Shown in pieces: positions 1 to 56,120 of a DNA stretch of 64,000 nucleotides. The translations under genes and the position numbers were made by a program. This DNA is from an uncultured Candidatus Saccharibacteria bacterium (GTDB lineage Bacteria; Patescibacteriota; UBA1384; XYA2-FULL-43-10; 1-14-0-10-43-13): assembly GCA_964406145.1 (NCBI GenBank), contig CAYOQP010000005.1, positions 834-64,833 on the forward strand. The letters are read 5' to 3'. The number at the start of each line of letters is the position of its first letter. Position 1 is the stretch's first letter. The notes beneath the pieces were generated by a model. The model made no database searches and had not been told where the DNA came from. It saw only the letters and a program-made list of their open reading frames with translations.

Positions 1-900
1 ATAATCATCAGACCAAAATAATTTTGCTGTATTCATTCCTACCACTCCGCAAGCATTGATCAATGGCCCTCCGGAGTTGCCAGGATTAATTGATGCATCA
101 GTTTGGATAATATCTATGCCATCCTCGTTAATCCTTCTTGAAAAAATACCTTTTGTTATTGTTGCCTCGCCCGTAGAATCATTTGGCCAGCCAATTGCAT
201 ACAATGTCTCTGCTGGTTTTAGAGTGCTTGAATCTTGGAGATCGATTTTCCAGTAGAAGTTGTAATCAACTTGGAGTATAGCAATATCCTGATCTGGATA
301 AGCGGCAAAAATTGAGGCATTCATCCATTCTTTGCCATCATAGCCAATCCAAACTTTTATTGTCTTGGCTCCTTCAATGACATGATAATTTGTCATCACC
401 AATCCGCTTGTTGCTGGATCATTAACAGAAAAGCCGCTACCATAGCCGATGAACTGATCCCGCTTATCAAACTGGCCTACTAGATGAGTGCTTGCTTTTG
501 CTTTTCGAATCGTGTCTTGTTCGTCACAGCTTGTACTTGTATTTATTGAGCTGGCACTTGTATTACTGCTTGTCTGATTTGTTGTTTCTCTCGGAGTAGC
601 TACATAGTAGATCGAAATTAGTAAAATTAGTAAAGGGATGATATAGAACCAATTATTAAATCGCTTAGATTTTTTACCACAATATTTGCAGAAAATTGCA
701 TCACGATTGATGACTTCATGGCAATGAGGACATTTCTTTATTGGTAGGCTTTTTTTATCTTCGTCATGTCTGCTAGTGTCTTTATTTCCATTAGCAATAA
801 ATGCCGCTTTGGATTGCCAAAAATGATAACCACACTCTGGGCAAGAATAGACACTTGTGGTATCGATTTTGTGTTCACAACTAGGACACCTGTTTGCCAT
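1..900 (-). CDS. Membrane-anchored trypsin-like serine protease with N-terminal double zinc ribbon (partial; C-terminus beyond window start)
   Basis: Reverse-strand translation from ATG at 900 gives MANRCPSCEH..CPECGY..CPHCHE..CKYCGK (two CxxC pairs), then a TM helix (WFYIIPLLILLISIYYVA) and an S/T-rich linker. The protease domain follows with catalytic-triad-like TNYHVIEG, DIAILQVD and GNSGGPLIN. The ORF runs off the window start. Confidence 0.6.
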   Translation of the reverse strand, partial: MANRCPSCEHKIDTTSVYSCPECGYHFWQSKAAFIANGNKDTSRHDEDKKSLPIKKCPHCHEVINRDAIFCKYCGKKSKRFNNWFYIIPLLILLISIYYVATPRETTNQTSSNTSASSINTSTSCDEQDTIRKAKASTHLVGQFDKRDQFIGYGSGFSVNDPATSGLVMTNYHVIEGAKTIKVWIGYDGKEWMNASIFAAYPDQDIAILQVDYNFYWKIDLQDSSTLKPAETLYAIGWPNDSTGEATITKGIFSRRINEDGIDIIQTDASINPGNSGGPLINACGVVGMNTAKLFWSDDY

Positions 901-915
901 AATATTGCCCTTTGT

Positions 916-1368
916 TTAGTCTAACGGGATAAAAAACCAGATGCCGTTGGCAATTACAAATATAATTATTCCCCAAATATCCCAAGCTTTCTGATTGGCT
1001 ATGAATTCTTTTTTGCTCTCCCATTTCCTGCTCTCCCATGCTATCTGCCTGCCTTTTATGCCAAAAATAATTATCATAATAAACCAAACAATTAACCCTA
1101 TAGTGCCAAAAGCAGTATCATCACTCTTTAATAAACCATTCATAACCATCCCCAGAACGAATAACCATCCCCAAAACGGATATTTCATTCCGCAGAAATA
1201 AATCCATCCTAGACCAAATGCGCCCCAAGACCATCTCTCGTGCGGTCTTTTTGTTGTTTCGCCCTCTCCAGAACTATCAGCTCCATGGTTCAAATGCGAA
1301 GATTCTCCGCAATGGATACAAAATTTAGAATCATTATCAATTTCCTTGCCACAATGCCTACAATACAT
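916..1368 (-). CDS. Zinc-ribbon domain membrane protein
   Basis: N-terminus MYCRHCGKEIDNDSKFCIHCGE (CxxC-x11-CxxC zinc ribbon), followed by about 4 hydrophobic helices. Paralogous N-terminus to its two neighbours. Confidence 0.5.
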   Translation of the reverse strand: MYCRHCGKEIDNDSKFCIHCGESSHLNHGADSSGEGETTKRPHERWSWGAFGLGWIYFCGMKYPFWGWLFVLGMVMNGLLKSDDTAFGTIGLIVWFIMIIIFGIKGRQIAWESRKWESKKEFIANQKAWDIWGIIIFVIANGIWFFIPLD

Positions 1369-1935: not shown

Positions 1936-2523
1936 TTATTTCTTCGGTAATCTTCCGCCAGAGGCCAAGCATGCATCGAGAGAATTATAAGGGGTATAGT
2001 TAGTAGTTCGGTCGTAATATGTGGTGCCAGGTGCATGGCAAATACTCGTTGAACTCTTTTTTACAACACCACCACTATTACTTTGCGTGATGACCTGAGT
2101 GGTCGATGCTGGAGCTGATACTTGGACAGTTTTTGTGCCGATGAGAACAATTTTGGTCACTGGTTGTACCGTAATAGACTGTGAGACAATTGCACGATTA
2201 GTTTCCTTGCCGTCAGTATAGGTAACTTTAGATACTGTTACCTGGGCACCGTTTTTGCCCTCTTGCTTGACTTTTGTCTGAGCTTTTTCGAGTGTCGGAT
2301 CATCTTGCTGTTGAGTCTCAAAAACGATCTCGTCAGTTTTGACATCTTCTTTAACTTCGATTTTTGGTGGTGCCACCGCTTCATTACTCGTTGAGCTTGA
2401 GACAGCATCAGTTTTCGTTGCATCGCATCCAGAAAGAGCAATCGAAAAGACGATCGCTATAATTGCATAGTTCAGTATCTTAATAAAACTTATGTTCTTC
2501 TCCCTCCCCTTTGAGTCAAACAT
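1936..2523 (-). CDS. Secreted lipoprotein with G5-like domain
   Basis: Signal peptide ending in LSGC (lipobox-like). The segment GKNGAQVTVSKVTYTDGKETNRAIVSQSITVQPVTKIVLIGTK resembles a G5 domain. The tail is Cys-containing. Confidence 0.4.
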   Translation of the reverse strand: MFDSKGREKNISFIKILNYAIIAIVFSIALSGCDATKTDAVSSSTSNEAVAPPKIEVKEDVKTDEIVFETQQQDDPTLEKAQTKVKQEGKNGAQVTVSKVTYTDGKETNRAIVSQSITVQPVTKIVLIGTKTVQVSAPASTTQVITQSNSGGVVKKSSTSICHAPGTTYYDRTTNYTPYNSLDACLASGGRLPKK

Positions 2524-5581: not shown

Positions 5582-5735
5582 CTCTTTTGAAAAAGTTGAA
5601 AAAGTATTATAATTAAACTACTACACAAGACAACGAAATAGGAGTTTTTTGCAAAAGTGAGGTAACAGCCGTTTCTTGTGTAGTAACTAGAAACTTCTAT
5701 GCTGTTGCCTCGCTTTTTATAAGGAGAATATTAAA

Positions 5736-7349
5736 ATGGAACAACAATTAAGATATATCGCCTATTGTCGGAAAAGCTCGGAGGATAATCGGGAAAAGCA
5801 GGCACTCTCTATCCCTGCCCAGATCGATGAAATCACAAAACGATTTAGCGATCTAAAAATCGTCAAACATTTGGAAGAATCGCAAAGCGCTTTTGATGTT
5901 GGCAGACCAAAGTTTAATGAAATGATAAATGACCTCAAAGATGGTCGAGCAGATGGCATTATTTGTTGGCATCCTGACCGAATGAGCCGAAATCCAATCG
6001 ATGCTTCGATGATTATTCATTATCTCGACAAAGGATTTATAAAAGACCTCAAGTTTTGTTCCTATAGCTTTACCAACGATCCAGAAGGCAAGATGTTTCT
6101 AAATTTTACCTTGAGCCAATCAAAATATTTCTCTGATAAGCTCTCAAAGGATGTTAAGCGTGGTTTGGAGAAAAAAATCAGGGATGGCTATCCATCTGGC
6201 GTGGTTCCTGTCGGTTATCTAAATTCGAAATATAATGACGGCAAAGGCAAGCAAGAAGCATTTATTGACCCCGATAGATTTGACCAAGTCCGAAAGCTTT
6301 GGGAAATGCTCCTGACTGGCAGATATACCGTCCCAGAGCTCTGGCGGATCGCTGATAAAGAGTGGCACTTTTCAACCATCAAAAGAAACCGAACCGGAGG
6401 CACGCCGATTTCTCGTTCTGGCCTGTATTCCGTTTTTACCAACCCATTTTATTATGGTGAGATTGTCTGGAATGGGATAAGAGCAGATGGAAAGCATCAG
6501 CCGATGATAACGCCAGAAGAGTTTGACCTTGCTCAAGAAATTCTTGGCCGAAAAGGCAAGCCAAGACCTCAAATTCATAAGTTTGCCTATACTGGTCGAA
6601 TAGTTTGCGGTGAATGTGGGGCTATGGTTACTGCTGAAAATAAAAAGAAAGTTTTGGCTAATGGTGAAGTCAAGAGATACAAGCTCTATCACTGCTCACA
6701 TAGAAAAAAAGATACTGATTGCCGCCAAGGATCAGTGCAAGAGGACTATTTTGAGGATTTGATCAAAAAGGAACTAAAAAACATAACTATTCCGGCGAAG
6801 TTTCAGGAATGGGCAATCGAATATCTTCACGAACTAAACGAAAGCGAAGTTAAAGACAGATCAACTATTTATAAAAACACCGAGAAGAGATTTTCGGAAG
6901 TTCAAGATCAACTCGATCGCTTAACAAGCGCACTAATCAAAGGCCTGATTGAAGAGGATGAATTTAAAAAGAAAAAAGACGAATTGATGCAGGCCAAGGG
7001 CAGATTAAAAAGTGAGATTAATAATACTGACAAGAGAGCCGACCACTGGCTTGAGACAACACTAGAATATTTTGACTTTGCCAGACATGCGGCAGATCGC
7101 TTCAATCACGGCGACCTCGAAGAAAAGAAACAAATTTTTGCTACTTTTGGTTCGAGCTACATACTAAAAGACAAAAAGCTAACGCTGGAAGTGAAGAAGC
7201 CACTCGTAAGGATAAAAGATGGTCTCGAAAAAATAAAAGCCGCTTATCCTAGGTTCGAACTAGAAATAAACGGCTCTCACAGTCACAAAACACCTGACTT
7301 ATTGGCAATACAACAACTATGGCTCCCCGAACTGGACTCGAACCAGTAA
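5736..7349 (+). CDS. Large serine recombinase (resolvase/invertase N-domain + recombinase domain + zinc ribbon)
   Basis: N-terminus YIAYCRKSSEDNREKQALSIPAQ carries the catalytic-Ser motif of serine recombinases. The size is 537 aa. CGECG..C..H zinc-ribbon region at residues 290-320. The last 30 nt overlap the 3' end of the tRNA-Asn. Confidence 0.85.
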   Translation: MEQQLRYIAYCRKSSEDNREKQALSIPAQIDEITKRFSDLKIVKHLEESQSAFDVGRPKFNEMINDLKDGRADGIICWHPDRMSRNPIDASMIIHYLDKGFIKDLKFCSYSFTNDPEGKMFLNFTLSQSKYFSDKLSKDVKRGLEKKIRDGYPSGVVPVGYLNSKYNDGKGKQEAFIDPDRFDQVRKLWEMLLTGRYTVPELWRIADKEWHFSTIKRNRTGGTPISRSGLYSVFTNPFYYGEIVWNGIRADGKHQPMITPEEFDLAQEILGRKGKPRPQIHKFAYTGRIVCGECGAMVTAENKKKVLANGEVKRYKLYHCSHRKKDTDCRQGSVQEDYFEDLIKKELKNITIPAKFQEWAIEYLHELNESEVKDRSTIYKNTEKRFSEVQDQLDRLTSALIKGLIEEDEFKKKKDELMQAKGRLKSEINNTDKRADHWLETTLEYFDFARHAADRFNHGDLEEKKQIFATFGSSYILKDKKLTLEVKKPLVRIKDGLEKIKAAYPRFELEINGSHSHKTPDLLAIQQLWLPELDSNQ

Positions 7350-7394
7350 CCTTCGCGTTAACAGCGCGCTGCTCTGCCATTGAGCTATCGGGGA
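7320..7394 (-). tRNA. tRNA-Asn (anticodon GTT), CCA encoded
   Basis: Reverse complement TCCCCGATAGCTCAATGGCAGAGCAGCGCGCTGTTAACGCGAAGGTTACTGGTTCGAGTCCAGTTCGGGGAGCCA. Acceptor stem TCCCCGA/TCGGGGA, D arm GCTC..GAGC, anticodon loop CTGTTAA, T arm ACTGG-TTCGAGT-CCAGT. Confidence 0.8.
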
Positions 7395-17675: not shown

Positions 17676-17765
17676 TGGCGGAGAGACAGGGATTCGAACC
17701 CTGGGTGGACTTGCGCCCACACACGCTTTCCAAGCGTGCGCACTAGGCCACTATGCGATCTCTCC
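17676..17765 (-). tRNA. tRNA-Ser (anticodon GGA), type II with long variable arm, CCA encoded
   Basis: Reverse complement GGAGAGATCGCATAGTGGCCTAGTGCGCACGCTTGGAAAGCGTGTGTGGGCGCAAGTCCACCCAGGGTTCGAATCCCTGTCTCTCCGCCA. Anticodon loop TTGGAAA, T arm CAGGG-TTCGAAT-CCCTG. Confidence 0.8.
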
Positions 17766-18008
17766 GTATTTTTTTGCTATATCTAATTTTTCCTTATAAC
17801 CCTTAGCGTGCTTTAGATACCACTCTCTCTTGCATGCTTCTTTCCTAGAATCAAACTCCTCAGTATGAATCATTTTCCAAGGCTTGAATGGTCGAGTTGA
17901 TCTTGTAGAACCAGAATTGTGCTCTACTAATCTTCTTATCGGATCGGTAGTGATGCCGATATAATGTCTCTTATCGGCATTTTCAAGCATGTATACGAAA
18001 TATTTCAT
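17751..18008 (-). CDS. GIY-YIG nuclease superfamily protein (YhbQ/YazA-like, UPF0213)
   Basis: FVYMLENADKRHYIGITTDPIRRLVEHNSG followed by REWYLKH. 85 aa. The 3' end overlaps tRNA-Ser nt 1-12. Confidence 0.8.
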   Translation of the reverse strand: MKYFVYMLENADKRHYIGITTDPIRRLVEHNSGSTRSTRPFKPWKMIHTEEFDSRKEACKREWYLKHAKGYKEKLDIAKKYGEIA

Positions 18009-20142: not shown

Positions 20143-20343
20143 ATGGAAAAAATAAATCCCTACGTTCACCCCGAGGCACCAGCCGTAACTCCACCGCCAC
20201 CAGCACAAAACATTGCTGATAAAGATCCGAGAAAAGAGCCGCCTGTTTCAGAAATAGATCCTCGAGATAAAATCGAAGAACCAACCAAAAAAGTACCTTC
20301 ACCAGATGAGAATATAGGTCGAAACTTTGATAGTTATGGATAA
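20143..20343 (+). CDS. Small Pro-rich hypothetical protein
   Basis: ORF with upstream aaggag RBS; 66 aa, P/E/K-rich. Confidence 0.3.
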   Translation: MEKINPYVHPEAPAVTPPPPAQNIADKDPRKEPPVSEIDPRDKIEEPTKKVPSPDENIGRNFDSYG

Positions 20344-20956
20344 ATTATCAATGAACAACCGTCTTAAAAAAATCTTTGATTTTCTTTGCGAAATAGAAAA
20401 ATTGAAACTCGTCGAGCGTATTCCCTATCTTTCCGATAAAAAAAGGCAAGAAAATGACGCCGAGCATTCTTGGCATTTAGCAATGATGTTGCTCGCCCTA
20501 GAGGGCGAATTTGAAAATAAATTTGATTTTTTTAGAACTCTCAAAATCATCCTTGTCCACGATTTGATAGAAATCCACACCGGAGATGATTGGGTTACAA
20601 CGAAAGAAGAAAAAGAGCTTAAAAGAGTTAGAGAAACAGAAGCAGCAGATAAAATATTTGCCATATTACCCAAAGATTTAGAGAAAGAATTCCGAGGCTT
20701 GTGGGAGGAATACGATCAAGGCAAGACAATGGAGGCTAAGATCGCCAAAGGGCTCGACAAACTTAGCTATTCACTCCAACATTCGCTGTCAAAAAAGATC
20801 AATTGGCACGAAAATGCTGACGCCATCGAATCAACCAGAAACTACGCTATGCCTTATATAAAAAATGAAAAAGCCATGATTGAAATGTTTGAACACTTGA
20901 TGACCGAAAGAGCCTCTCACCATGATGAATTTGAGTGGGTCAAACGAATTAAATAA
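20327..20956 (+). CDS. HD-domain phosphohydrolase (YfbR-like 5'-deoxynucleotidase family)
   Basis: HSWHLAMMLL ... LVHDLIEIHTGD (H..HD..D metal-binding motifs). Confidence 0.8.
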   Translation: MIVMDKLSMNNRLKKIFDFLCEIEKLKLVERIPYLSDKKRQENDAEHSWHLAMMLLALEGEFENKFDFFRTLKIILVHDLIEIHTGDDWVTTKEEKELKRVRETEAADKIFAILPKDLEKEFRGLWEEYDQGKTMEAKIAKGLDKLSYSLQHSLSKKINWHENADAIESTRNYAMPYIKNEKAMIEMFEHLMTERASHHDEFEWVKRIK

Positions 20957-20976
20957 GCAATAATTTTGCACCAATA

Positions 20977-21006
20977 AAAGATGTCACGCACAGGACGTCT
21001 TTTTTG
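20977..21006 (+). terminator. Rho-independent terminator
   Basis: aaagatgtc-acgcacag-gacgtcttt stem followed by a T6 run. Confidence 0.55.
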
Positions 21007-21094
21007 TATCTATCCACAGAGACAAAAGCATGGAATTAGAATATAATTTTGACAATTTGGGCCAGAATCTATCCCCGTTTTAGGAGGTTACCAT

Positions 21095-21313
21095 ATGTCT
21101 GATGTGTGCGTTCAGTGCGCAAAACGCAAAGAAACAGGCCCCAAGGCCTGCCTCTCCTGTGAAATCAGCGAGGCCGGGCACCACCGGTGCCAACACTGCC
21201 ACGCCGCAGTAAAAGACGGCGCGCTCCAGTGCTCAATCTGCTTCGCGATCCAACGCGAGCATTTCCCCAGTCCCGACCCCCTACTCTTGTCACAATTCAA
21301 TCCAGGAATGTGA
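21095..21313 (+). CDS. GC-rich small Cys-rich protein (4x CxxC)
   Basis: Perfect SD (ttaggaggttaccatATG). Motifs CVQC..CLSC..CQHC..CSIC. Codon usage is GC-rich, unlike the flanking genes. Confidence 0.45.
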   Translation: MSDVCVQCAKRKETGPKACLSCEISEAGHHRCQHCHAAVKDGALQCSICFAIQREHFPSPDPLLLSQFNPGM

Positions 21314-21325
21314 CCCGTGCCGGCG

Positions 21326-21352
21326 CGCGATAGATCTAATCTATCGCGTTTG
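21326..21352 (+). terminator. Terminator hairpin cgcgatagat-cta-atctatcgcg followed by TTTG
   Basis: 10-bp perfect inverted repeat. Confidence 0.55.
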
Positions 21353-21356
21353 CCAT

Positions 21357-22670
21357 TTGTTTTGCTTTGCAGAAGAAAAAGCTATACTTGTGATGCAGAT
21401 GAAAAATAAAGTTGAAAAAATATTTGATTTCTTGGAGATCTCCGAGCAATTAAAGAATACGAAACGTTGGAAAAACGTTCCACAGATGAAGAAAAAGGAA
21501 ACAAGCGCAGACCACACTTGGCATGTCGCCCTTTTGGCCTGTCTGTTCGATAAAGAATTAGATTTTGAAATTGATTTTCTGAAAGCGATACAAATAATTA
21601 TAATCCATGATCTGGTTGAGGCTATCACCGACGATATTGATTACGTCCAATTTTTTAAAGGCCTAGCCGATCCCAAAGATAAAGACAGAAATGAGAAATT
21701 AGCTATTGCAAAAATAAGAAGTGTGTTGCCAGAAAAAAGTGGCAAGATTATCTTCGATCTTTGGCAGGAATACGAAGATAAAAGTTCGAATGAGGGCAAA
21801 TTTGCTTACGCTATGGACAAAATCGAGGGCCTGCATCATATGGTCCATACCGGACACGAATGTTTTCACTTTGCCGAGATAATCGGAACATATCCCAATA
21901 AAGCTGTAGCAGGTTTTCCCAAACTCAAATCAGTCCTTTGTGAGCACAAGAAAAGAGCAAAAACAGAAATGGAAAAACACGGCTGGGATTGGAAAGGTGA
22001 ATATAGTCTAGATGGCACAAATGATACAAAATCGACTAAAGAAATAGAACAAATTTTTGACTTCATCGAGATTTCCGAAAACCTCAAAGATACCAGGAGA
22101 TATCTCAACACGAAGGAAATGAAACAAAAGGAATCTAGCGCTGAACATTCTTGGCATGTAGCCCTAATCTCGATGATTGTTTTTTATGAATTTGATCTTA
22201 AAGTCGATCTTTTGAAATCAATCAAAATGGCTTTGGTTCATGACTTACCAGAGTCGATAGCTGGCGATACTGACTATTCTCTAGTTGCTTGGGGCATTAA
22301 AACAAAAGAGGAAAAACACGATATGGAGTTGGCGGCAATCAAAGAAATAAGAAAAAGATTGCCCAAGAAATCTGGTCAAGAAATCTACAATCTTTGGCAA
22401 GAATACGAGCAATCCGAGACAGCTGAAGCCAAATTTATTAAAGCGGTAGACAAAATAGAAGGCATAAATCATATGCTTGTTTTAGGACATGAATGCTTTG
22501 ATCATCCAGAGCTAATAGCTCCATATCCAAATAAAGCTGTCAAAAAATTCCCTGAAATCAAAGCAATGCTTATAGAATTACACGATCGCTTGAAGCCAAA
22601 ATTTGAAAAACTGGGCTGGCCGTGGCTTGAAGAATATGCAAAATTCTTAAACAAGGAAGAAAATGAATAA
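21357..22670 (+). CDS. Tandem double HD-domain phosphohydrolase
   Basis: Two HD units: HTWHVALLACL..IIIHDLVEAITDD and HSWHVALISMI..LVHDLPESIAGD. The true start may be the Met at 21393. Confidence 0.8.
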   Translation: MFCFAEEKAILVMQMKNKVEKIFDFLEISEQLKNTKRWKNVPQMKKKETSADHTWHVALLACLFDKELDFEIDFLKAIQIIIIHDLVEAITDDIDYVQFFKGLADPKDKDRNEKLAIAKIRSVLPEKSGKIIFDLWQEYEDKSSNEGKFAYAMDKIEGLHHMVHTGHECFHFAEIIGTYPNKAVAGFPKLKSVLCEHKKRAKTEMEKHGWDWKGEYSLDGTNDTKSTKEIEQIFDFIEISENLKDTRRYLNTKEMKQKESSAEHSWHVALISMIVFYEFDLKVDLLKSIKMALVHDLPESIAGDTDYSLVAWGIKTKEEKHDMELAAIKEIRKRLPKKSGQEIYNLWQEYEQSETAEAKFIKAVDKIEGINHMLVLGHECFDHPELIAPYPNKAVKKFPEIKAMLIELHDRLKPKFEKLGWPWLEEYAKFLNKEENE

Positions 22671-23532
22671 CTTGGAACTTGGGATACTTTTGGGCTTAAT
22701 TGCTTTAATAAGCGGCGGACTTTCTAACGCCATGGTAAAGACACCTTCTCAAGTTGAGGGGGTAAATAAAACAATATTCTATAGAAATCTATTTATTACA
22801 ATTTTGCTTCTGGCTCTAGTCATATTAACACCAGATAAAACAAATTTCAGTTGGAAATATGCAATTTTTACTTTTCTCCTGGCAATTTTCGGCTACATCC
22901 CAATGTATTATTATTACAAAGCGACTACAGTCGGTAAAATTGGTGTCGTCTCACCAGTATCGTCAGGAAATATCTTAATAGCCATAATCTTAGCAACAAT
23001 ATTTTTCCATGAAAGACTGACATCATTGCAATACCTCGCTATTGCAGTCATTATTTTTGGCGTTGTTTTGATTTCTCTTAATGTTAAAGACTTCAAATCA
23101 TCAAAGATTTTTCAAGTTGAAAGCGGCATACCATATGCCCTTATTGCCGCTTTGGGTTGGGGAATTTGGATGGCTTTTGTAAAAATATCAATCGATAATC
23201 TGGGTCCATATCTTGCCTCATTCATCGGAGAACTAACTATTTTGTTGATTGCGACATTCCTGCTTATAAAATCCAAAGAAAATTTTGGACTGAAAACAAA
23301 TAAATCATTATATTTCTTACTTCCTATAGCAATTTTTCTTTTTGCCTGGGAAATCGGCTATTATACCGGATTAAAAGTAGCTAACGTCAGTATTATTGTT
23401 GCGCTCTCCTCTGCCAGCCCAATAGTTGTCGCTCTTTTTGGCCGATTTTTTTACAAAGAAAAACTGTCTTCAAAACAGTATATGGCAATAATGATTATAA
23501 TTATTGGAATGATAGCGCTCTCAATAAAATAA
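22663..23532 (+). CDS. EamA/DMT-family transporter
   Basis: 10 predicted TM helices; two EamA-like repeats; 289 aa. Confidence 0.75.
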   Translation: MNNLELGILLGLIALISGGLSNAMVKTPSQVEGVNKTIFYRNLFITILLLALVILTPDKTNFSWKYAIFTFLLAIFGYIPMYYYYKATTVGKIGVVSPVSSGNILIAIILATIFFHERLTSLQYLAIAVIIFGVVLISLNVKDFKSSKIFQVESGIPYALIAALGWGIWMAFVKISIDNLGPYLASFIGELTILLIATFLLIKSKENFGLKTNKSLYFLLPIAIFLFAWEIGYYTGLKVANVSIIVALSSASPIVVALFGRFFYKEKLSSKQYMAIMIIIIGMIALSIK

Positions 23533-23587
23533 CCGCCCCGAACCAAATGTGTGTATGGTTGGGGCGGGAAGGCTTCCCTGATGCTGG

Positions 23588-23785
23588 TCAGGAAAGGCGG
23601 ACGGTCGCCTGGCGTTCTTCGCCGGTATTCTGACCAGTCCAGGTGACGATGGCATGAACGCCGTCGAGTTGGCCGACAACTCGCACCTCGCCATCTTTCG
23701 GCGGATCAGTCGACAAGAAGTTGGTCTCAACTTCATCGGAGACATGGGCTGTGATACCCTTAACACGAAACGTCTGATCGGGCAT
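23588..23785 (-). CDS. GC-rich small hypothetical protein (65 aa)
   Basis: aaggagg SD followed by an ATG that begins MPDQTFRVKGITAHV. The ORF track extends the frame to 23860 but the SD supports 23785. Confidence 0.35.
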   Translation of the reverse strand: MPDQTFRVKGITAHVSDEVETNFLSTDPPKDGEVRVVGQLDGVHAIVTWTGQNTGEERQATVRLS

Positions 23786-23865
23786 GGCTTCCTCCTTTAT
23801 AGATGCCAAGAATTGGGAAGATTGTGCTTGCAGGATAACACTTATTATGAATTTGAGCAAGACTA

Positions 23866-23892
23866 AAATAGCCCCACTTAGTGGGGCTATTT
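23866..23892. terminator. Bidirectional terminator aaatagccccac-tta-gtggggctattt
   Basis: 12-bp perfect inverted repeat with T runs on both strands, immediately downstream of the PEP synthase stop. Confidence 0.65.
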
Positions 23893-47269: not shown

Positions 47270-47360
47270 ATTCTGATATTAGCCCAAAGGAGTTTAAAAA
47301 GAAAGAAAAACAATCGGCCCCCGAATTGTAGTACGGGAGCCGACGGCTGGGTGAACGGCC

Positions 47361-47519
47361 TTATACGGCCTGACGCTGTTGCTGCTTGCGCAGTTCCTGG
47401 CGATGACGCCGGGAGCCTTGAGGCGCGGCCTTGACCTTACCGGCGTTTTTGCCGGTGACCTTTGCGCCCTTGGGGCAGTGATGACGAGACTTGCGCTTCG
47501 CGCCATTGGAACGAGACAA
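47361..47519 (-). CDS. GC-rich small highly basic ORF (52 aa); frame uncertain
   Basis: ggagg SD followed 6 nt later by TTG. Translation MSRSNGAKRKSRHHCPKGAKVTGKNAGKVKAAPQGSRRHRQELRKQQQRQAV. The alternative overlapping frames listed in the ORF track (47294-47548 minus; 47379-47588 plus) lack an RBS. Confidence 0.25.
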   Translation of the reverse strand: MSRSNGAKRKSRHHCPKGAKVTGKNAGKVKAAPQGSRRHRQELRKQQQRQAV

Positions 47520-47613
47520 GATGGACCTCCTCTGTGGCAAACGACCACTATGCGGGATGGAATATATTTACAGAAAATTTTAGATTAAGTCAAATTGTGC
47601 CATAAACGTAGCT

Positions 47614-47640
47614 GCGCCCCCCGAACAGGTCGGGGGGCGC
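47614..47640. terminator. Strong GC hairpin gcgccccccga-acagg-tcggggggcgc
   Basis: 11-bp perfect inverted repeat just downstream of the stop of the 47653-48840 gene. Confidence 0.5.
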
Positions 47641-47652
47641 AGGATAGCAGGG

Positions 47653-48840
47653 TCAGAGCCCTGCGTTGGACATGATACGGCGGATTTTGTCCTCGCCGAA
47701 AGGGTGGTCGAACGAACGCCAACCGGCGAGCTTCATGCCGCTTTCTTGCGCGATCAGGCGCAGGTGCTGAAGCCAGTCCAAATTGACATCACCGACCGAG
47801 TAGACGCCCTGGAAGTTGCCCATCAGAGCGATCAGGATCGTCTCGGCCATACAGGCGAAGAGCGTGCCCTTGTCGAAACCGAAGGTAAAGCTCTGCTTCA
47901 TGAAGGGACAGGACACAACACCGCCATCGACGACGAAGATGTCGTCCCGAGCCGAGACAAGCTGAAGAGCAATGTCACGAGGACGAGCAACGTCGACGAC
48001 GACAGTCCCTGGCAGGAGCCAGCGGGGATCAATAGCCAGAGTATCGGCCGAAGATGAGACAGCCAGGATCAGCTTGCTCTGACGGATAGCTCCCCCAAGA
48101 TCAGAGATGATCACTTTAGCATTCGTGTGCTTGTGCAGATCCTGTTTCAGCTCAGCGAGACGAGATGAGGTGTCACCAGCACGACCAACAAGATAGATAG
48201 TGTTGCTCCAATCAAGCTCGGAGGCAAGTAGAAAGGCGGAATTGCGTCCGACTAATCCGGCGGCACCGATCACGGCAACCGAAGCACCTCCGAGCCAGTG
48301 TCCAACGTGCCTAAAAAGCCCCAAAGCCCCAGACACAGCCATGACGCTGGTGAAGCCGTTACCAGAGGTAACCGCAATCTGTTTCCCGTACTCCGAACCA
48401 ATCGTCTTGGCCAGACCATTGATCGCTGTTGCGCCACCAAGGCCAACCACGTTAGCACGTAGTCCGCTGATAGAATGACGAACACTTCCTCGAATGCGAC
48501 GAAGAGCCTCATCCTGATTGTCAAGAATCTCTCGGGCCGACATCGGCACACCGAGATAGATCATCTCAATCTCCCGAATCATTCCTTCAAACGGGAGAAC
48601 AGTAACAAAGCTTCCCATCCTGAGAAGCGGCGGCGGCAATCTCTTGAGAGCTCCCAAGATGACCTTGCCGCTGAAAGGAGCAGTGAATGGATACTTTCGG
48701 ACCACCAAGTCTCTTACATAATTGGGGTCATCTGTATCCGGGTTAACGGTGAAAGCACACCTTGTGATGCTTGCGGGCAAGTCACTCATGTGGCAACCCT
48801 CCTTACAGAATATCGCTTGAGGCGACACCTGATAGTACAA
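47653..48840 (-). CDS. GC-rich Rossmann-fold (NAD(P)-binding) oxidoreductase-like protein, function unknown
   Basis: Glycine-rich dinucleotide-binding stretches GLGGATAINGLAKTIG and VIGAAGLVGRN; about 55% GC versus about 37% in the flanks. Confidence 0.5.
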   Translation of the reverse strand: MYYQVSPQAIFCKEGCHMSDLPASITRCAFTVNPDTDDPNYVRDLVVRKYPFTAPFSGKVILGALKRLPPPLLRMGSFVTVLPFEGMIREIEMIYLGVPMSAREILDNQDEALRRIRGSVRHSISGLRANVVGLGGATAINGLAKTIGSEYGKQIAVTSGNGFTSVMAVSGALGLFRHVGHWLGGASVAVIGAAGLVGRNSAFLLASELDWSNTIYLVGRAGDTSSRLAELKQDLHKHTNAKVIISDLGGAIRQSKLILAVSSSADTLAIDPRWLLPGTVVVDVARPRDIALQLVSARDDIFVVDGGVVSCPFMKQSFTFGFDKGTLFACMAETILIALMGNFQGVYSVGDVNLDWLQHLRLIAQESGMKLAGWRSFDHPFGEDKIRRIMSNAGL

Positions 48841-49011
48841 TCTTATTACATATTTGTCAATAAATATATTCGTATTTAATTCTTTCTTAAACCATTGACA
48901 ATAGAGACAAAAATTGCTACAATTTCATCTTGGAAAATTTGCAACTGTCGATCTGACGGTTTTTTTATTTGCCGCCAGATCAAACTGTTACAAGAGGAGT
49001 AACTAACGCCC

Positions 49012-49338
49012 ATGGTCATGCTAAATCAAGCAACCACCCCACCAGTCAGTACCAGCAGCATAAGTCATAGCAATCACAGCTTTGACCTGCGGGTGTTGCA
49101 AGTTAGAGAAACCCAGTGGCGCACCAGATTGGGCGCCGCCCTCGATATCATCGAGGAGGGCGACCTCGAATTGGTCAGTAAATACATCATCCCGATGTTG
49201 TCTGACCGCTCGAAAGTCGTCCGTCAAAAAGTCCATCGCGAGATGGTCTCACTGTTCGGAACCTATTTCCCCCCCTTCATCTCCTTCGCCCGGCGGGAAA
49301 TGTTCTGGATGAAAGAAAAAGAGCGAGAGCTCTTATAA
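49012..49338 (+). CDS. GC-rich hypothetical protein
   Basis: 108-aa ORF within the GC-rich island; no motifs. Confidence 0.3.
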   Translation: MVMLNQATTPPVSTSSISHSNHSFDLRVLQVRETQWRTRLGAALDIIEEGDLELVSKYIIPMLSDRSKVVRQKVHREMVSLFGTYFPPFISFARREMFWMKEKERELL

Positions 49339-49451
49339 ATGCGTGCCCTTCGGGGCCGCATACTACCGAAGACAGACGGCCAGCTGGCCGTCCTGAATCA
49401 TTTAAACCACAAAAACTCGTTTTTCAAGATAAAATTTGCTAAGATAGCCTC

Positions 49452-55525: not shown

Positions 55526-55831
55526 TCACGCGACTCTTCTCGCTTTAATCTGTAGAGCCACCTCTTCTCCGTAAAGAATGACTTGGCAACTCGGACAGAT
55601 CGTCGTTGTCTCGCACTCCTCTTCGGGCATGCTAGACGTCGCTTGGAATTCACCAAGCTTGGCGCGACAATGGCCACAACGCAACTCCATCGTCACAATT
55701 CGAGGAATGCGACTTCGGAGCCCTTCGTCAATGGTTTTGAAGCATTGACCACAAAGACTGTTGGAACCACGGTCGAGGCCGATCAGGGCACCACAGTTGA
55801 CACAATTGTCCAATGCGATAGATTCGCTCAT
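55526..55831 (-). CDS. GC-rich Cys-rich protein (4x CxxC; double zinc-ribbon-like), 101 aa
   Basis: Perfect SD taggaggagaagtcgaATG at 55831. Motifs CVNC..CGQC..CGHC..CPSC. The ORF-track version (to 55936) overlaps the upstream gene; the SD-supported start avoids the overlap. Confidence 0.45.
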   Translation of the reverse strand: MSESIALDNCVNCGALIGLDRGSNSLCGQCFKTIDEGLRSRIPRIVTMELRCGHCRAKLGEFQATSSMPEEECETTTICPSCQVILYGEEVALQIKARRVA

Positions 55832-55844
55832 TCGACTTCTCCTC

Positions 55845-56120
55845 CTAGACGTCATGCACCAGCAGACGCTCTCCACTCCTTGCGAGAACCATAAGGACAT
55901 CCTCGTTGGAACATCCTGTCGGAGAAAGCAAGGCAAATTTCAGACGAACAGCGTACTCATCGGGCAAATAGACTTGGTACCTATGATCATTACCACAATC
56001 ACAAACAACGGAAAGACCGCTTGAAAGCATACGCTTACAAGACGGACAGACATCGTCCACTGTTTCGAAAGTTGCTGTAAATGCAAGCCGACAAAGCCGA
56101 CATCCACAGAGAACCTTCAT
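55845..56120 (-). CDS. GC-rich Cys-rich protein, 91 aa
   Basis: SD aatcaggaggtatctggATG. Motifs CGCRLC..CPSC..CDCG. Immediately upstream of, and co-oriented with, the 55526-55831 gene. Confidence 0.4.
   Translation of the reverse strand: MKVLCGCRLCRLAFTATFETVDDVCPSCKRMLSSGLSVVCDCGNDHRYQVYLPDEYAVRLKFALLSPTGCSNEDVLMVLARSGERLLVHDV

Follow-up and report, generated by a model that had tools for sequence, protein, structure and literature searches.

A short patch of unusual base composition raises the question of whether a foreign gene has been inserted at that site or whether a gene that was already there has come to look foreign. The locus considered here lies in a 64 kb stretch of Candidatus Saccharibacteria DNA (the window, by which we mean the whole stretch that was analysed), in which a patch of about 290 bp at positions 21060-21352 encloses an open reading frame (ORF) for a 72-aa protein with four CxxC motifs. 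The first-pass annotation had described this patch as an islet rich in guanine and cytosine (GC) between two HD-domain genes, and had taken it for a self-contained expression cassette that was acquired horizontally. Our overall reading, which we hold with moderate confidence, is that the ORF represents a resident monocistronic micro-gene of the Saccharibacteria chromosome, whose GC-rich allele came through exchange.

The mean GC content of the window is 0.404, with a standard deviation (sd) of 0.065 among 120-nt windows. Across 21056-21373, the GC content of 150-nt windows is 0.55-0.61, compared with 0.33-0.41 on both flanks. The 120-nt maximum within the islet is 0.65, about 3.8 sd over the window mean, and values above 0.63 are reached at only three places in the 64 kb (120-nt windows). 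The GC spike in AT-rich surroundings that had been reported from the letters was thus borne out (up to 0.65 vs 0.40), as was its position between two HD-domain genes, both of which are HD_3/YfbR-like by Pfam. The AGGAGG Shine-Dalgarno (SD) sequence and the ORF with CVQC, CLSC, CQHC, and CSIC were likewise found exactly where the first-pass annotation had placed them. The elements of the small-gene unit are as follows.

21010 to 21018, plus strand: upstream box CTATCCACA, matching 8 of 9 positions of the DnaA-box consensus TTATCCACA (TTWTNCACA)
21019 to 21047, plus strand: sigma-70-type promoter-like site GAGACA-17 nt-TATAAT, with a 10/12 consensus match
21048 to 21067, plus strand: conserved leader start TTTGACAATTTGGGCCAGAA, from alignments; the GC-rich, hyper-divergent block starts immediately 3' of it
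21082 to 21087, plus strand: Shine-Dalgarno sequence AGGAGG, 7 nt 5' of the ATG at 21095
21095 to 21313, plus strand: 72-aa ORF, sequence MSDVCVQCAKRKETGPKACLSCEISEAGHHRCQHCHAAVKDGALQCSICFAIQREHFPSPDPLLLSQFNPGM, with 8 Cys and a 23-residue tail containing IQxE[HY]FP
21322 to 21354, plus strand: 3' hairpin with a 10-bp perfect stem plus outer pairs (-20.7 kcal/mol, z -2.7)

The small gene and its product

Is the 72-aa ORF a gene at all? Comparison with its counterpart on a JGI metagenome contig (L021) gave 19 nucleotide differences, 13 synonymous and 6 non-synonymous, at 93% amino acid identity. With 46 synonymous (S) and 170 non-synonymous (N) sites, the synonymous divergence (dS) is 0.353 and the non-synonymous divergence (dN) 0.036, giving a dN/dS of about 0.1; the binomial probability that at least 13 of the 19 changes are synonymous without coding constraint is 1.4e-5. 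An ENA contig (L022) carries in the same place an orthologous 69-aa ORF (MTDECANCTSRQISGTIACKLCNITVPAGFHRCGNCNTMIEDGTFQCSQCSGIQPEYFPKYVEELVRQA) with 46% identity over 59 residues (tblastn E 3.3e-15). None of the eight cysteines varies among the orthologs of the window, L021, and L022, the tail IQxE[HY]FP is kept in the same three, and the 72-aa frame is the only one that is open across them. We regard the ORF as almost certainly a real protein-coding gene, and the substitution pattern indicates that it is under purifying selection. The alignments show a protein that has changed far more rapidly than its neighbours around an invariant core consisting of the eight cysteines and the short tail motif.

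The four CxxC pairs occupy residues 5-8 (CVQC), 19-22 (CLSC), 32-35 (CQHC), and 46-49 (CSIC), and make up two Cys4 halves (C5/C8/C19/C22 and C32/C35/C46/C49) in which the CxxC knuckles are spaced 10 residues apart. This arrangement resembles the Pfam families DZR (PF12773) and Zn_Ribbon_1 (PF13240), in which a stretch of about 45 residues holds four CxxC knuckles that form two zinc ribbons in a row. The three orthologs with four CxxC pairs all align to DZR, covering model positions 1-44 of 45 (E 0.0017-0.0098), and Zn_Ribbon_1 scored 19.1 bits over residues 32-49, under its 25-bit threshold. The sole NCBIfam match was weak (E 0.042) and paired residues 4-53 with positions 1-51 of a serine/threonine phosphatase model. 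DZR is usually an N-terminal module of larger proteins; here, in contrast, the ribbons would stand alone in a 72-aa protein with an IQxE[HY]FP tail and a sub-threshold score. By inspection, a signal peptide and any membrane or hydrophobic segment are absent. We consider it likely that the protein is a double zinc ribbon, and we file it as a stand-alone double zinc ribbon, probably zinc-binding as predicted, and not as a certified PF12773 member. Its kind is known, but it would represent a new sequence family, whose functional role we can only infer.

The closest functional analogues are the C(P)XCG micro-proteins of Haloferax volcanii, zinc-finger proteins of less than about 70 aa that consist almost wholly of CxxC knuckles, are often unannotated, and have regulatory or stress-related roles (PMC11241148, PMC10716476, PMC6562870). 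They differ in being archaeal and in having no sequence similarity to the 72-aa protein, and membership of the latter in the Haloferax C(P)XCG type was rejected, the motif being absent (CVQCA, CLSCE, CQHCH, and CSICF; none with the following G or P2). One of these archaeal proteins, HVO_2753, has four motifs and binds one zinc only, and CxxC motifs can be metal-free (PMC11241148). Sequence therefore does not reveal metal occupancy.

The homolog search proposed in the first-pass annotation returned only the sub-threshold Pfam zinc-ribbon matches described above; the protein databases, PADLOC, and PHROGs were blank. In detail, the 72-aa protein had no match in a word-indexed protein search, with either the single sequence or a three-sequence profile, and none in an exhaustive phmmer search against 1.84 billion representative proteins; the exact sequences of the three orthologs (window, L021, and L022) are absent from a 15-billion-protein collection. 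PDB sequences gave noise only (E >= 0.2), PHROGs and PADLOC contained no family at E <= 0.1 for either the 72-aa protein or its L022 ortholog, and viral contigs yielded no homologs by promoter DNA or protein profile scans. None of the gene tables and protein collections checked contains the 72-aa gene; the gene tables without its ORF are those of L019, L020, L021, L022, and L024-L026. The absence of matches among 1.84 billion proteins is explained by the lack of the gene in the retrieved gene tables. In contrast, each of the remaining small ORFs of the window (65, 66, 91, 101, and 108 aa) has a record as a hypothetical protein.

The transcription unit and its occurrence in relatives

The next question is whether this gene is resident or inserted. 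The relatives compared include Logan assemblies of two different runs (L019 and L020), L021, L022, L024, and a GTDB representative labelled Candidatus Saccharibacteria (L001). The identity of the downstream double-HD (HD-HD) protein to that of the window is 82% for L021, 78% for L022, and 56% for L024, while the HD protein of L001 shows 64%. The islet is identical at every base in both Logan assemblies, its two junctions included, and the independent L021 has the GC-rich allele in the same context. A unit consisting of promoter, SD, small Cys ORF, and hairpin is located immediately 5' of an HD(-HD)-EamA pair in five Saccharibacteria lineages (window, L021, L022, L024, and L001). In L024, the gene order is CYTH-HAD-small ORF-HD-[slot]-HDHD-EamA-[slot]-PEP synthase, and the slot ORF has 53 aa and one zinc ribbon; the slot ORF of L001 has 76 aa, is Cys-rich, and has a CxxC-x3-IQxEY-x-P motif in common with the 72-aa protein. 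Resting on position and the shared promoter, the L024 and L001 units are probably the same small gene. The upstream gene in L001 is CYTH instead of HD, and the conserved promoter block is still present there; since the block persists beside CYTH, the small-gene unit travels with the HD-EamA pair.

The first-pass annotation had suggested checking relatives for the presence or absence of the gene. The site is not lacking it: it is occupied in L021 and L022, and probably also in L024 and L001. We hold it very likely, from this conservation of position, that the 72-aa gene is resident in the clade and not a fresh insertion. The earlier description of a self-contained, horizontally acquired cassette is therefore kept in part only: the islet is an expression unit with a foreign-like coding body, but it is not a new insertion, since L021 and L022 have orthologs in the same position.

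The slot holds other small genes as well. A second small Cys gene on the opposite strand is located between HD and HD-HD at 876-1196 (minus) of L022 and at 2097-2363 (minus) of L024. These two genes are related to each other (pairwise E 2e-5), lie on different sides of the zinc-ribbon unit, and are absent from the window. This variation among L022, L024, and the window shows that small genes come, go, and change their arrangement in the slot.

How the gene is expressed can be approached through its conserved upstream region. In an alignment of the five loci (window, L021, L022, L024, and L001), the invariant positions are T.TCCACA, ACA in the -35 region, TATA.TT.T.A.AATTTG.GC covering the -10 region and the leader start, and AGGAG. 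The conserved promoter block reads TATAATTTTGACAATTTGGGCC, and a conserved TATCCACA box precedes the promoter; the block is 92% identical to L022 and L021, although the synonymous sites of the neighbour genes are near saturation. The DnaA-box-like 9-mer is CTATCCACA in the window (8/9), TTATCCACA in L001 (9/9), and TTGTCCACA in L024, and its distance to the -35 element is about 9-10 nt, or roughly one helical turn, greater in L024 and L001. TTATCCACA is the DnaA-box consensus, and TTGTCCACA is the DnaA-box variant reported for high-GC Gram-positive bacteria. A small gene known to be controlled by DnaA boxes is sda of Bacillus subtilis. The likeness consists of a small protein gene with a DnaA-box-like 9-mer conserved beside its promoter; the differences are that the window has a single box and that the 72-aa protein has no similarity to Sda. 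The DnaA-box-like site may possibly tune the expression of the 72-aa gene, with conservation as the sole argument. Another motif, AGAGACAAAA, is common to the small-gene promoter and a promoter-like region 5' of 49012, and occurs 21 times in the window vs 10.7 expected; it was dropped, as its matches are scattered and show no association with GC islets.

At the other end of the unit, the hairpin arms CGCGATAGAT (21326-21335) and ATCTATCGCG (21339-21348) are 100% complementary and enclose a 3-nt loop, CTA. The T-tract that follows is interrupted (GTTTGCCATTTGTTTTGCTTTG), although the sequence is T-rich across about 20 nt, and the tail GTTTGCCATTTGTTTTG is under the terminator-scan criterion of 5 T in 8. 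The hairpin is unlisted by the terminator scan because the interrupted T-tract fails this T-run criterion. Of the terminator with a 10-bp stem proposed in the first-pass annotation, the perfect stem is thus present, whereas the T-tract is broken and the element is missing from the scan list. The hairpin at 21322-21354 probably serves either to terminate transcription intrinsically or to stabilise the mRNA. Each of the five loci has a stable hairpin, different in sequence, that starts no more than about 21 nt from the stop codon. Upstream, a terminator-like hairpin at 20976-21009 sets the preceding HD gene apart from the small-gene unit. Together, the upstream terminator, the conserved promoter, the consensus SD, and the conserved position of the 3' hairpin indicate an independent transcription unit.

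Origin of the GC-rich allele

If the gene is resident, why is it so rich in GC? The GC content at third codon positions (GC3) of the 72-aa ORF is 0.66, which lies more than 5 sd above the mean of the 52 long ORFs in the window (0.377, sd 0.054); the only other window ORFs with GC3 >0.5 belong to two other GC-rich patches. The same protein was re-encoded 5000 times by the codon usage of the window. The expected GC3 was 0.373 +/- 0.055 vs an observed value of 0.662, which was reached in none of the 5000 re-encodings, and the expected GC content was 0.475 +/- 0.019 vs 0.582 observed. According to this result, about half of the GC excess stems from amino acid composition (Cys, Ala, Gly, Pro, His, and Arg) and about half from codon choice; the GC-rich codons pointed out in the first-pass annotation are thus a real property of the ORF. 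GC3 is ordinary in L022 (P 0.16) and L024 (P 0.27), and intermediate in L001 (0.52, P 0.004). Translational selection or expression-linked bias was rejected as the cause of the high GC3, since GroEL and GroES have ordinary GC3.

The pattern of divergence among lineages also bears on this question. Relative to L022, positions 21068-21355 are 47-62% identical, compared with 70-88% in the flanking HD genes and 92% in the promoter block, and the hyper-divergent stretch falls together with the GC-rich block. Relative to L021, the islet is 82-98% identical, with 95-98% in the C-terminal half of the ORF and in the hairpin. The HD-HD gene is 85-90% identical to that of L021 at its 5' end and then 60-70%, and the overall proportion of synonymous differences (pS) is 0.74, near saturation. 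In the second quarter of HD-HD, the window and L021 are closest (88% aa, with 70-73% to L022), whereas in the 3' half L021 and L022 are closest (89-90%) and the window stands at 67-78%. This mosaic pattern makes homologous recombination among the lineages evident.

In Patescibacteria, horizontal gene transfer (HGT) is frequent, and most exchange is reported to occur between Patescibacteria (PMC12455944), which fits an allele swap from a relative. The islets described in that work are similar in having an atypical composition within a streamlined candidate phyla radiation (CPR) genome. They differ from the present case, which measures about 290 bp, contains no mobility genes, and has a homolog already at the site in relatives; the latter argues for replacement rather than gain. 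We tentatively attribute the GC content to allele replacement, giving this explanation slightly less than even weight. In the mechanism that we propose, the promoter GAGACA-17-TATAAT would drive a transcript of about 300 nt consisting of a leader of about 40 nt, the 72-codon ORF, and an end at the 3' hairpin. The GC-rich allele of the window lineage and L021 would have been introduced from a GC-richer relative by homologous recombination, extending from the conserved promoter block to the start of HD-HD (AAAAAGCTATACT).

Replacement has a serious rival in a change in place without any transfer, that is, a fast drift of a resident, weakly constrained gene towards GC through GC-biased gene conversion at a slot prone to recombination or through selection on mRNA stability. 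The region is a recombination mosaic, the L024 and L001 slots likewise hold GC-elevated small ORFs, the noncoding leader and hairpin are GC-rich too, and the folding of the 311-nt transcript is stronger than that of shuffled sequences (z -3.5), all of which would fit such a drift. We nevertheless judge it unlikely, since a GC3 shift of about 0.3 against the AT bias would be needed while L022 remained ordinary at the same evolutionary distance, and no nucleotide-level conservation with L022 is left inside the ORF. A recent horizontal gain of the complete cassette (SD, ORF, and terminator) between host HD genes is still less probable. It could account for the GC3 of 0.66 vs 0.37 expected, for the sharp compositional borders, and for the further GC-rich patches with orphan ORFs in the same window, and it would agree with the frequent HGT in Patescibacteria (PMC12455944). 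It conflicts with the L022 homolog of ordinary composition at the same site and with the similar L024 and L001 units and their conserved promoter. Furthermore, neither a second islet nor a second copy of the protein was found in the window, the slot contains no recombinase or integrase gene, and no phage, defence, or viral-contig relatives were detected. An 8-nt direct repeat (AATCTATC) does bracket the islet, but it was rejected as a target-site duplication, because L021 has changes in both copies and the second one is simply the hairpin's 3' arm; a conserved target-site repeat is thus missing.

The remaining explanations concern what the element is. We give little weight to the idea that a variable accessory slot here encodes a small protein of anti-defence, toxin, or immunity type: the fast, lineage-specific evolution of the protein and a slot that gains and loses a second small Cys ORF (in L022 and L024, not in the window) would suit this role, but the PADLOC, PHROGs, and viral homolog searches were all negative, there is no partner gene, and the conserved promoter is of a housekeeping type. 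Marginally less probable again, and very unlikely in our view, is a structured non-coding or dual-function RNA in which the ORF is incidental. A GC-rich patch in an AT-rich genome with a 311-nt folding z of -3.5, an ORF called by no gene finder, and codons 29-62 that are nearly invariant between the window and L021, synonymous sites included, might be read in this way. The invariance of these codons is explained more simply by a recent recombination tract, and a dN/dS of about 0.1, a perfect SD at ideal spacing, and the retention of eight Cys and the frame at 46% protein identity, with nucleotides only 47-62% identical, speak for a protein. In addition, Rfam 15 gave no match at the gathering score and only noise at E up to 10 within 20900-21500. 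The possibility that the islet is an assembly chimera or contamination, to which the abrupt GC change alone points, is practically negligible, given that both junctions are identical in two Logan assemblies of different runs and that the GC-rich allele stands in the same context in a JGI metagenome.

Several observations weigh against our own reading of a resident gene with an exchanged allele and a zinc-ribbon product. A GC-rich donor lineage was not found. The high-identity tract shared with L021 takes in the AT-rich promoter as well as the 5' part of HD-HD; this recombination tract therefore does not stop at the islet borders. For the ORFs of L024 and L001, hhalign gave probabilities of 30% and 0.7%, respectively, against the 72-aa protein, so that sequence does not establish their homology to it. 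The distant relatives L023, L027-L031, and L033 (HD-HD identity <=57%) have other upstream genes and no small ORF, which means that the small gene is clade-restricted. As regards the product, the DZR scores of 16.5 (window), 18.9 (L021), and 17.5 bits (L022) are under the gathering score of 27.3 bits, and the single-sequence AlphaFold2 model is unreliable, with a predicted local distance difference test (pLDDT) value of 56. DnaA-box-like matches in the window number 16 vs 15.4 expected, which equals the chance frequency. Finally, nothing but adjacency links the 72-aa gene to the HD genes, and its unit comes with a separate promoter and hairpin.

Genomic surroundings and possible role

The genes and elements that flank the small-gene unit are the following.

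20327 to 20956, plus strand: upstream neighbour, single HD_3/YfbR-like phosphohydrolase of 209 aa (Pfam PF13023, E 8.9e-39)
20976 to 21009, plus strand: terminator-like hairpin and T-run closing the upstream HD gene (the terminator scan lists 20976-21003)
21376 to 21388, plus strand: probable -10 region AAAAAGCTATACT, kept in the window, L021, and L022 amid diverging sequence
21393 to 22670, plus strand: downstream neighbour, double-HD protein (HD_3 x2), 425 aa per public records (Pfam E 1.6e-70)
22663 to 23532: EamA transporter gene, after the double-HD gene (Pfam)

The conserved AAAAAGCTATACT is probably the -10 element of the downstream HD-HD gene's own promoter. The double-HD protein is 100% identical to the database entry P0001, and its further relatives show 82%, 78%, and 56% identity. 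Upstream, the HAD and HD genes are separated by a 66-aa Pro-rich ORF (20143-20343), which overlaps the beginning of HD. L024 has a called gene of 56 aa in this position, and the ORF is probably another conserved micro-gene.

Other parts of the window also contain GC-rich patches and small orphan ORFs. Between EamA and PEP synthase, a second GC-rich mini-unit (23498-23870, 120-nt GC up to 0.63) has an AGGAGG, a 65-aa orphan ORF at 23588-23785 on the minus strand (MPDQTFRVKG...), and a hairpin at about 23533-23567. This ORF has a GC3 of 0.61 vs 0.37 expected and is recorded as a singleton hypothetical protein; in L024, this slot holds different GC-rich small ORFs of 71 and 137 aa. The largest GC-rich patch (47278-48840, 0.53-0.58) contains a 395-aa minus-strand gene (GC3 0.60) that is like the N-terminal reductase part of PigE and like acyl-ACP reductases (NCBIfam E 3e-34 and 3e-12), and is likely foreign DNA. 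A possible 52-aa, very basic ORF with a TTG start after GGAGG is located at 47361-47519 (minus) and is absent from the protein collection. At 49006-49410, a GC-rich 108-aa orphan ORF (49012-49338, GC3 0.66), a singleton in the protein collection, has a TTGACA-17-TACAAT promoter-like site about 115 nt upstream and is followed by a hairpin. Two adjacent Cys-rich orphan ORFs of 101 aa (four CxxC) and 91 aa are found at 55526-56120 (minus), in a GC-elevated patch upstream of GroES/GroEL, and belong to clusters of two to three members. The first-pass annotation had drawn a parallel between the CxxC layouts of the 72-aa protein and this 101-aa protein (55526-55831); the resemblance proved generic, as both have four CxxC pairs without homology (BLASTP E 0.034; hhalign 17%).

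Elsewhere in the window, a large serine recombinase gene (5691-7394; Resolvase, Recombinase, and zinc ribbon) ends in or beside tRNA-Asn (7320-7394, minus), a junction that may be the border of an integrated element. An 85-aa ORF at 17751-18008 (minus) resembles, by eye, a GIY-YIG-type protein and shares about 15 nt with the 5' end of tRNA-Ser (17676-17765, minus).

What might the 72-aa protein do? We propose that it would act as a small metal-stabilised module that binds protein or nucleic acid, that is, as a regulator or adaptor, and that its most plausible partners or targets would be the adjacent deoxynucleotidase-like HD enzymes or the EamA transporter. That it is indeed a regulator or adaptor tied to the HD module is doubtful on the present sequence comparisons. 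A more far-reaching proposal, which we think quite improbable, is that a fixed DnaA-box-like promoter is combined with a body of about 290 bp (leader, ORF, and hairpin) that is swapped as whole alleles between Saccharibacteria; the product would then be a replication-status-responsive regulator of HD/EamA, maybe one of several GC-rich micro-genes in fixed slots.

These findings do not overturn current knowledge, and their value is modest. If our reading is true, they illustrate that small genes can drop out of databases, the present ORF being missing from the gene tables of three assemblers and from the NCBI, JGI, and Logan protein sets. The statement that a protein has no homolog among 1.8 billion proteins would then reflect annotation and not the absence of the gene; despite this database silence, the 72-aa ORF has a perfect SD, purifying selection, and a conserved position. 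Likewise, a patch of atypical GC content need not mean an insertion, and the islet would be an allele of a resident gene with borders at conserved recombination flanks. Overall, if this is so, Saccharibacteria of this clade would possess a candidate small zinc-ribbon regulator beside nucleotide-salvage-type HD hydrolases, possibly with a DnaA-responsive promoter.

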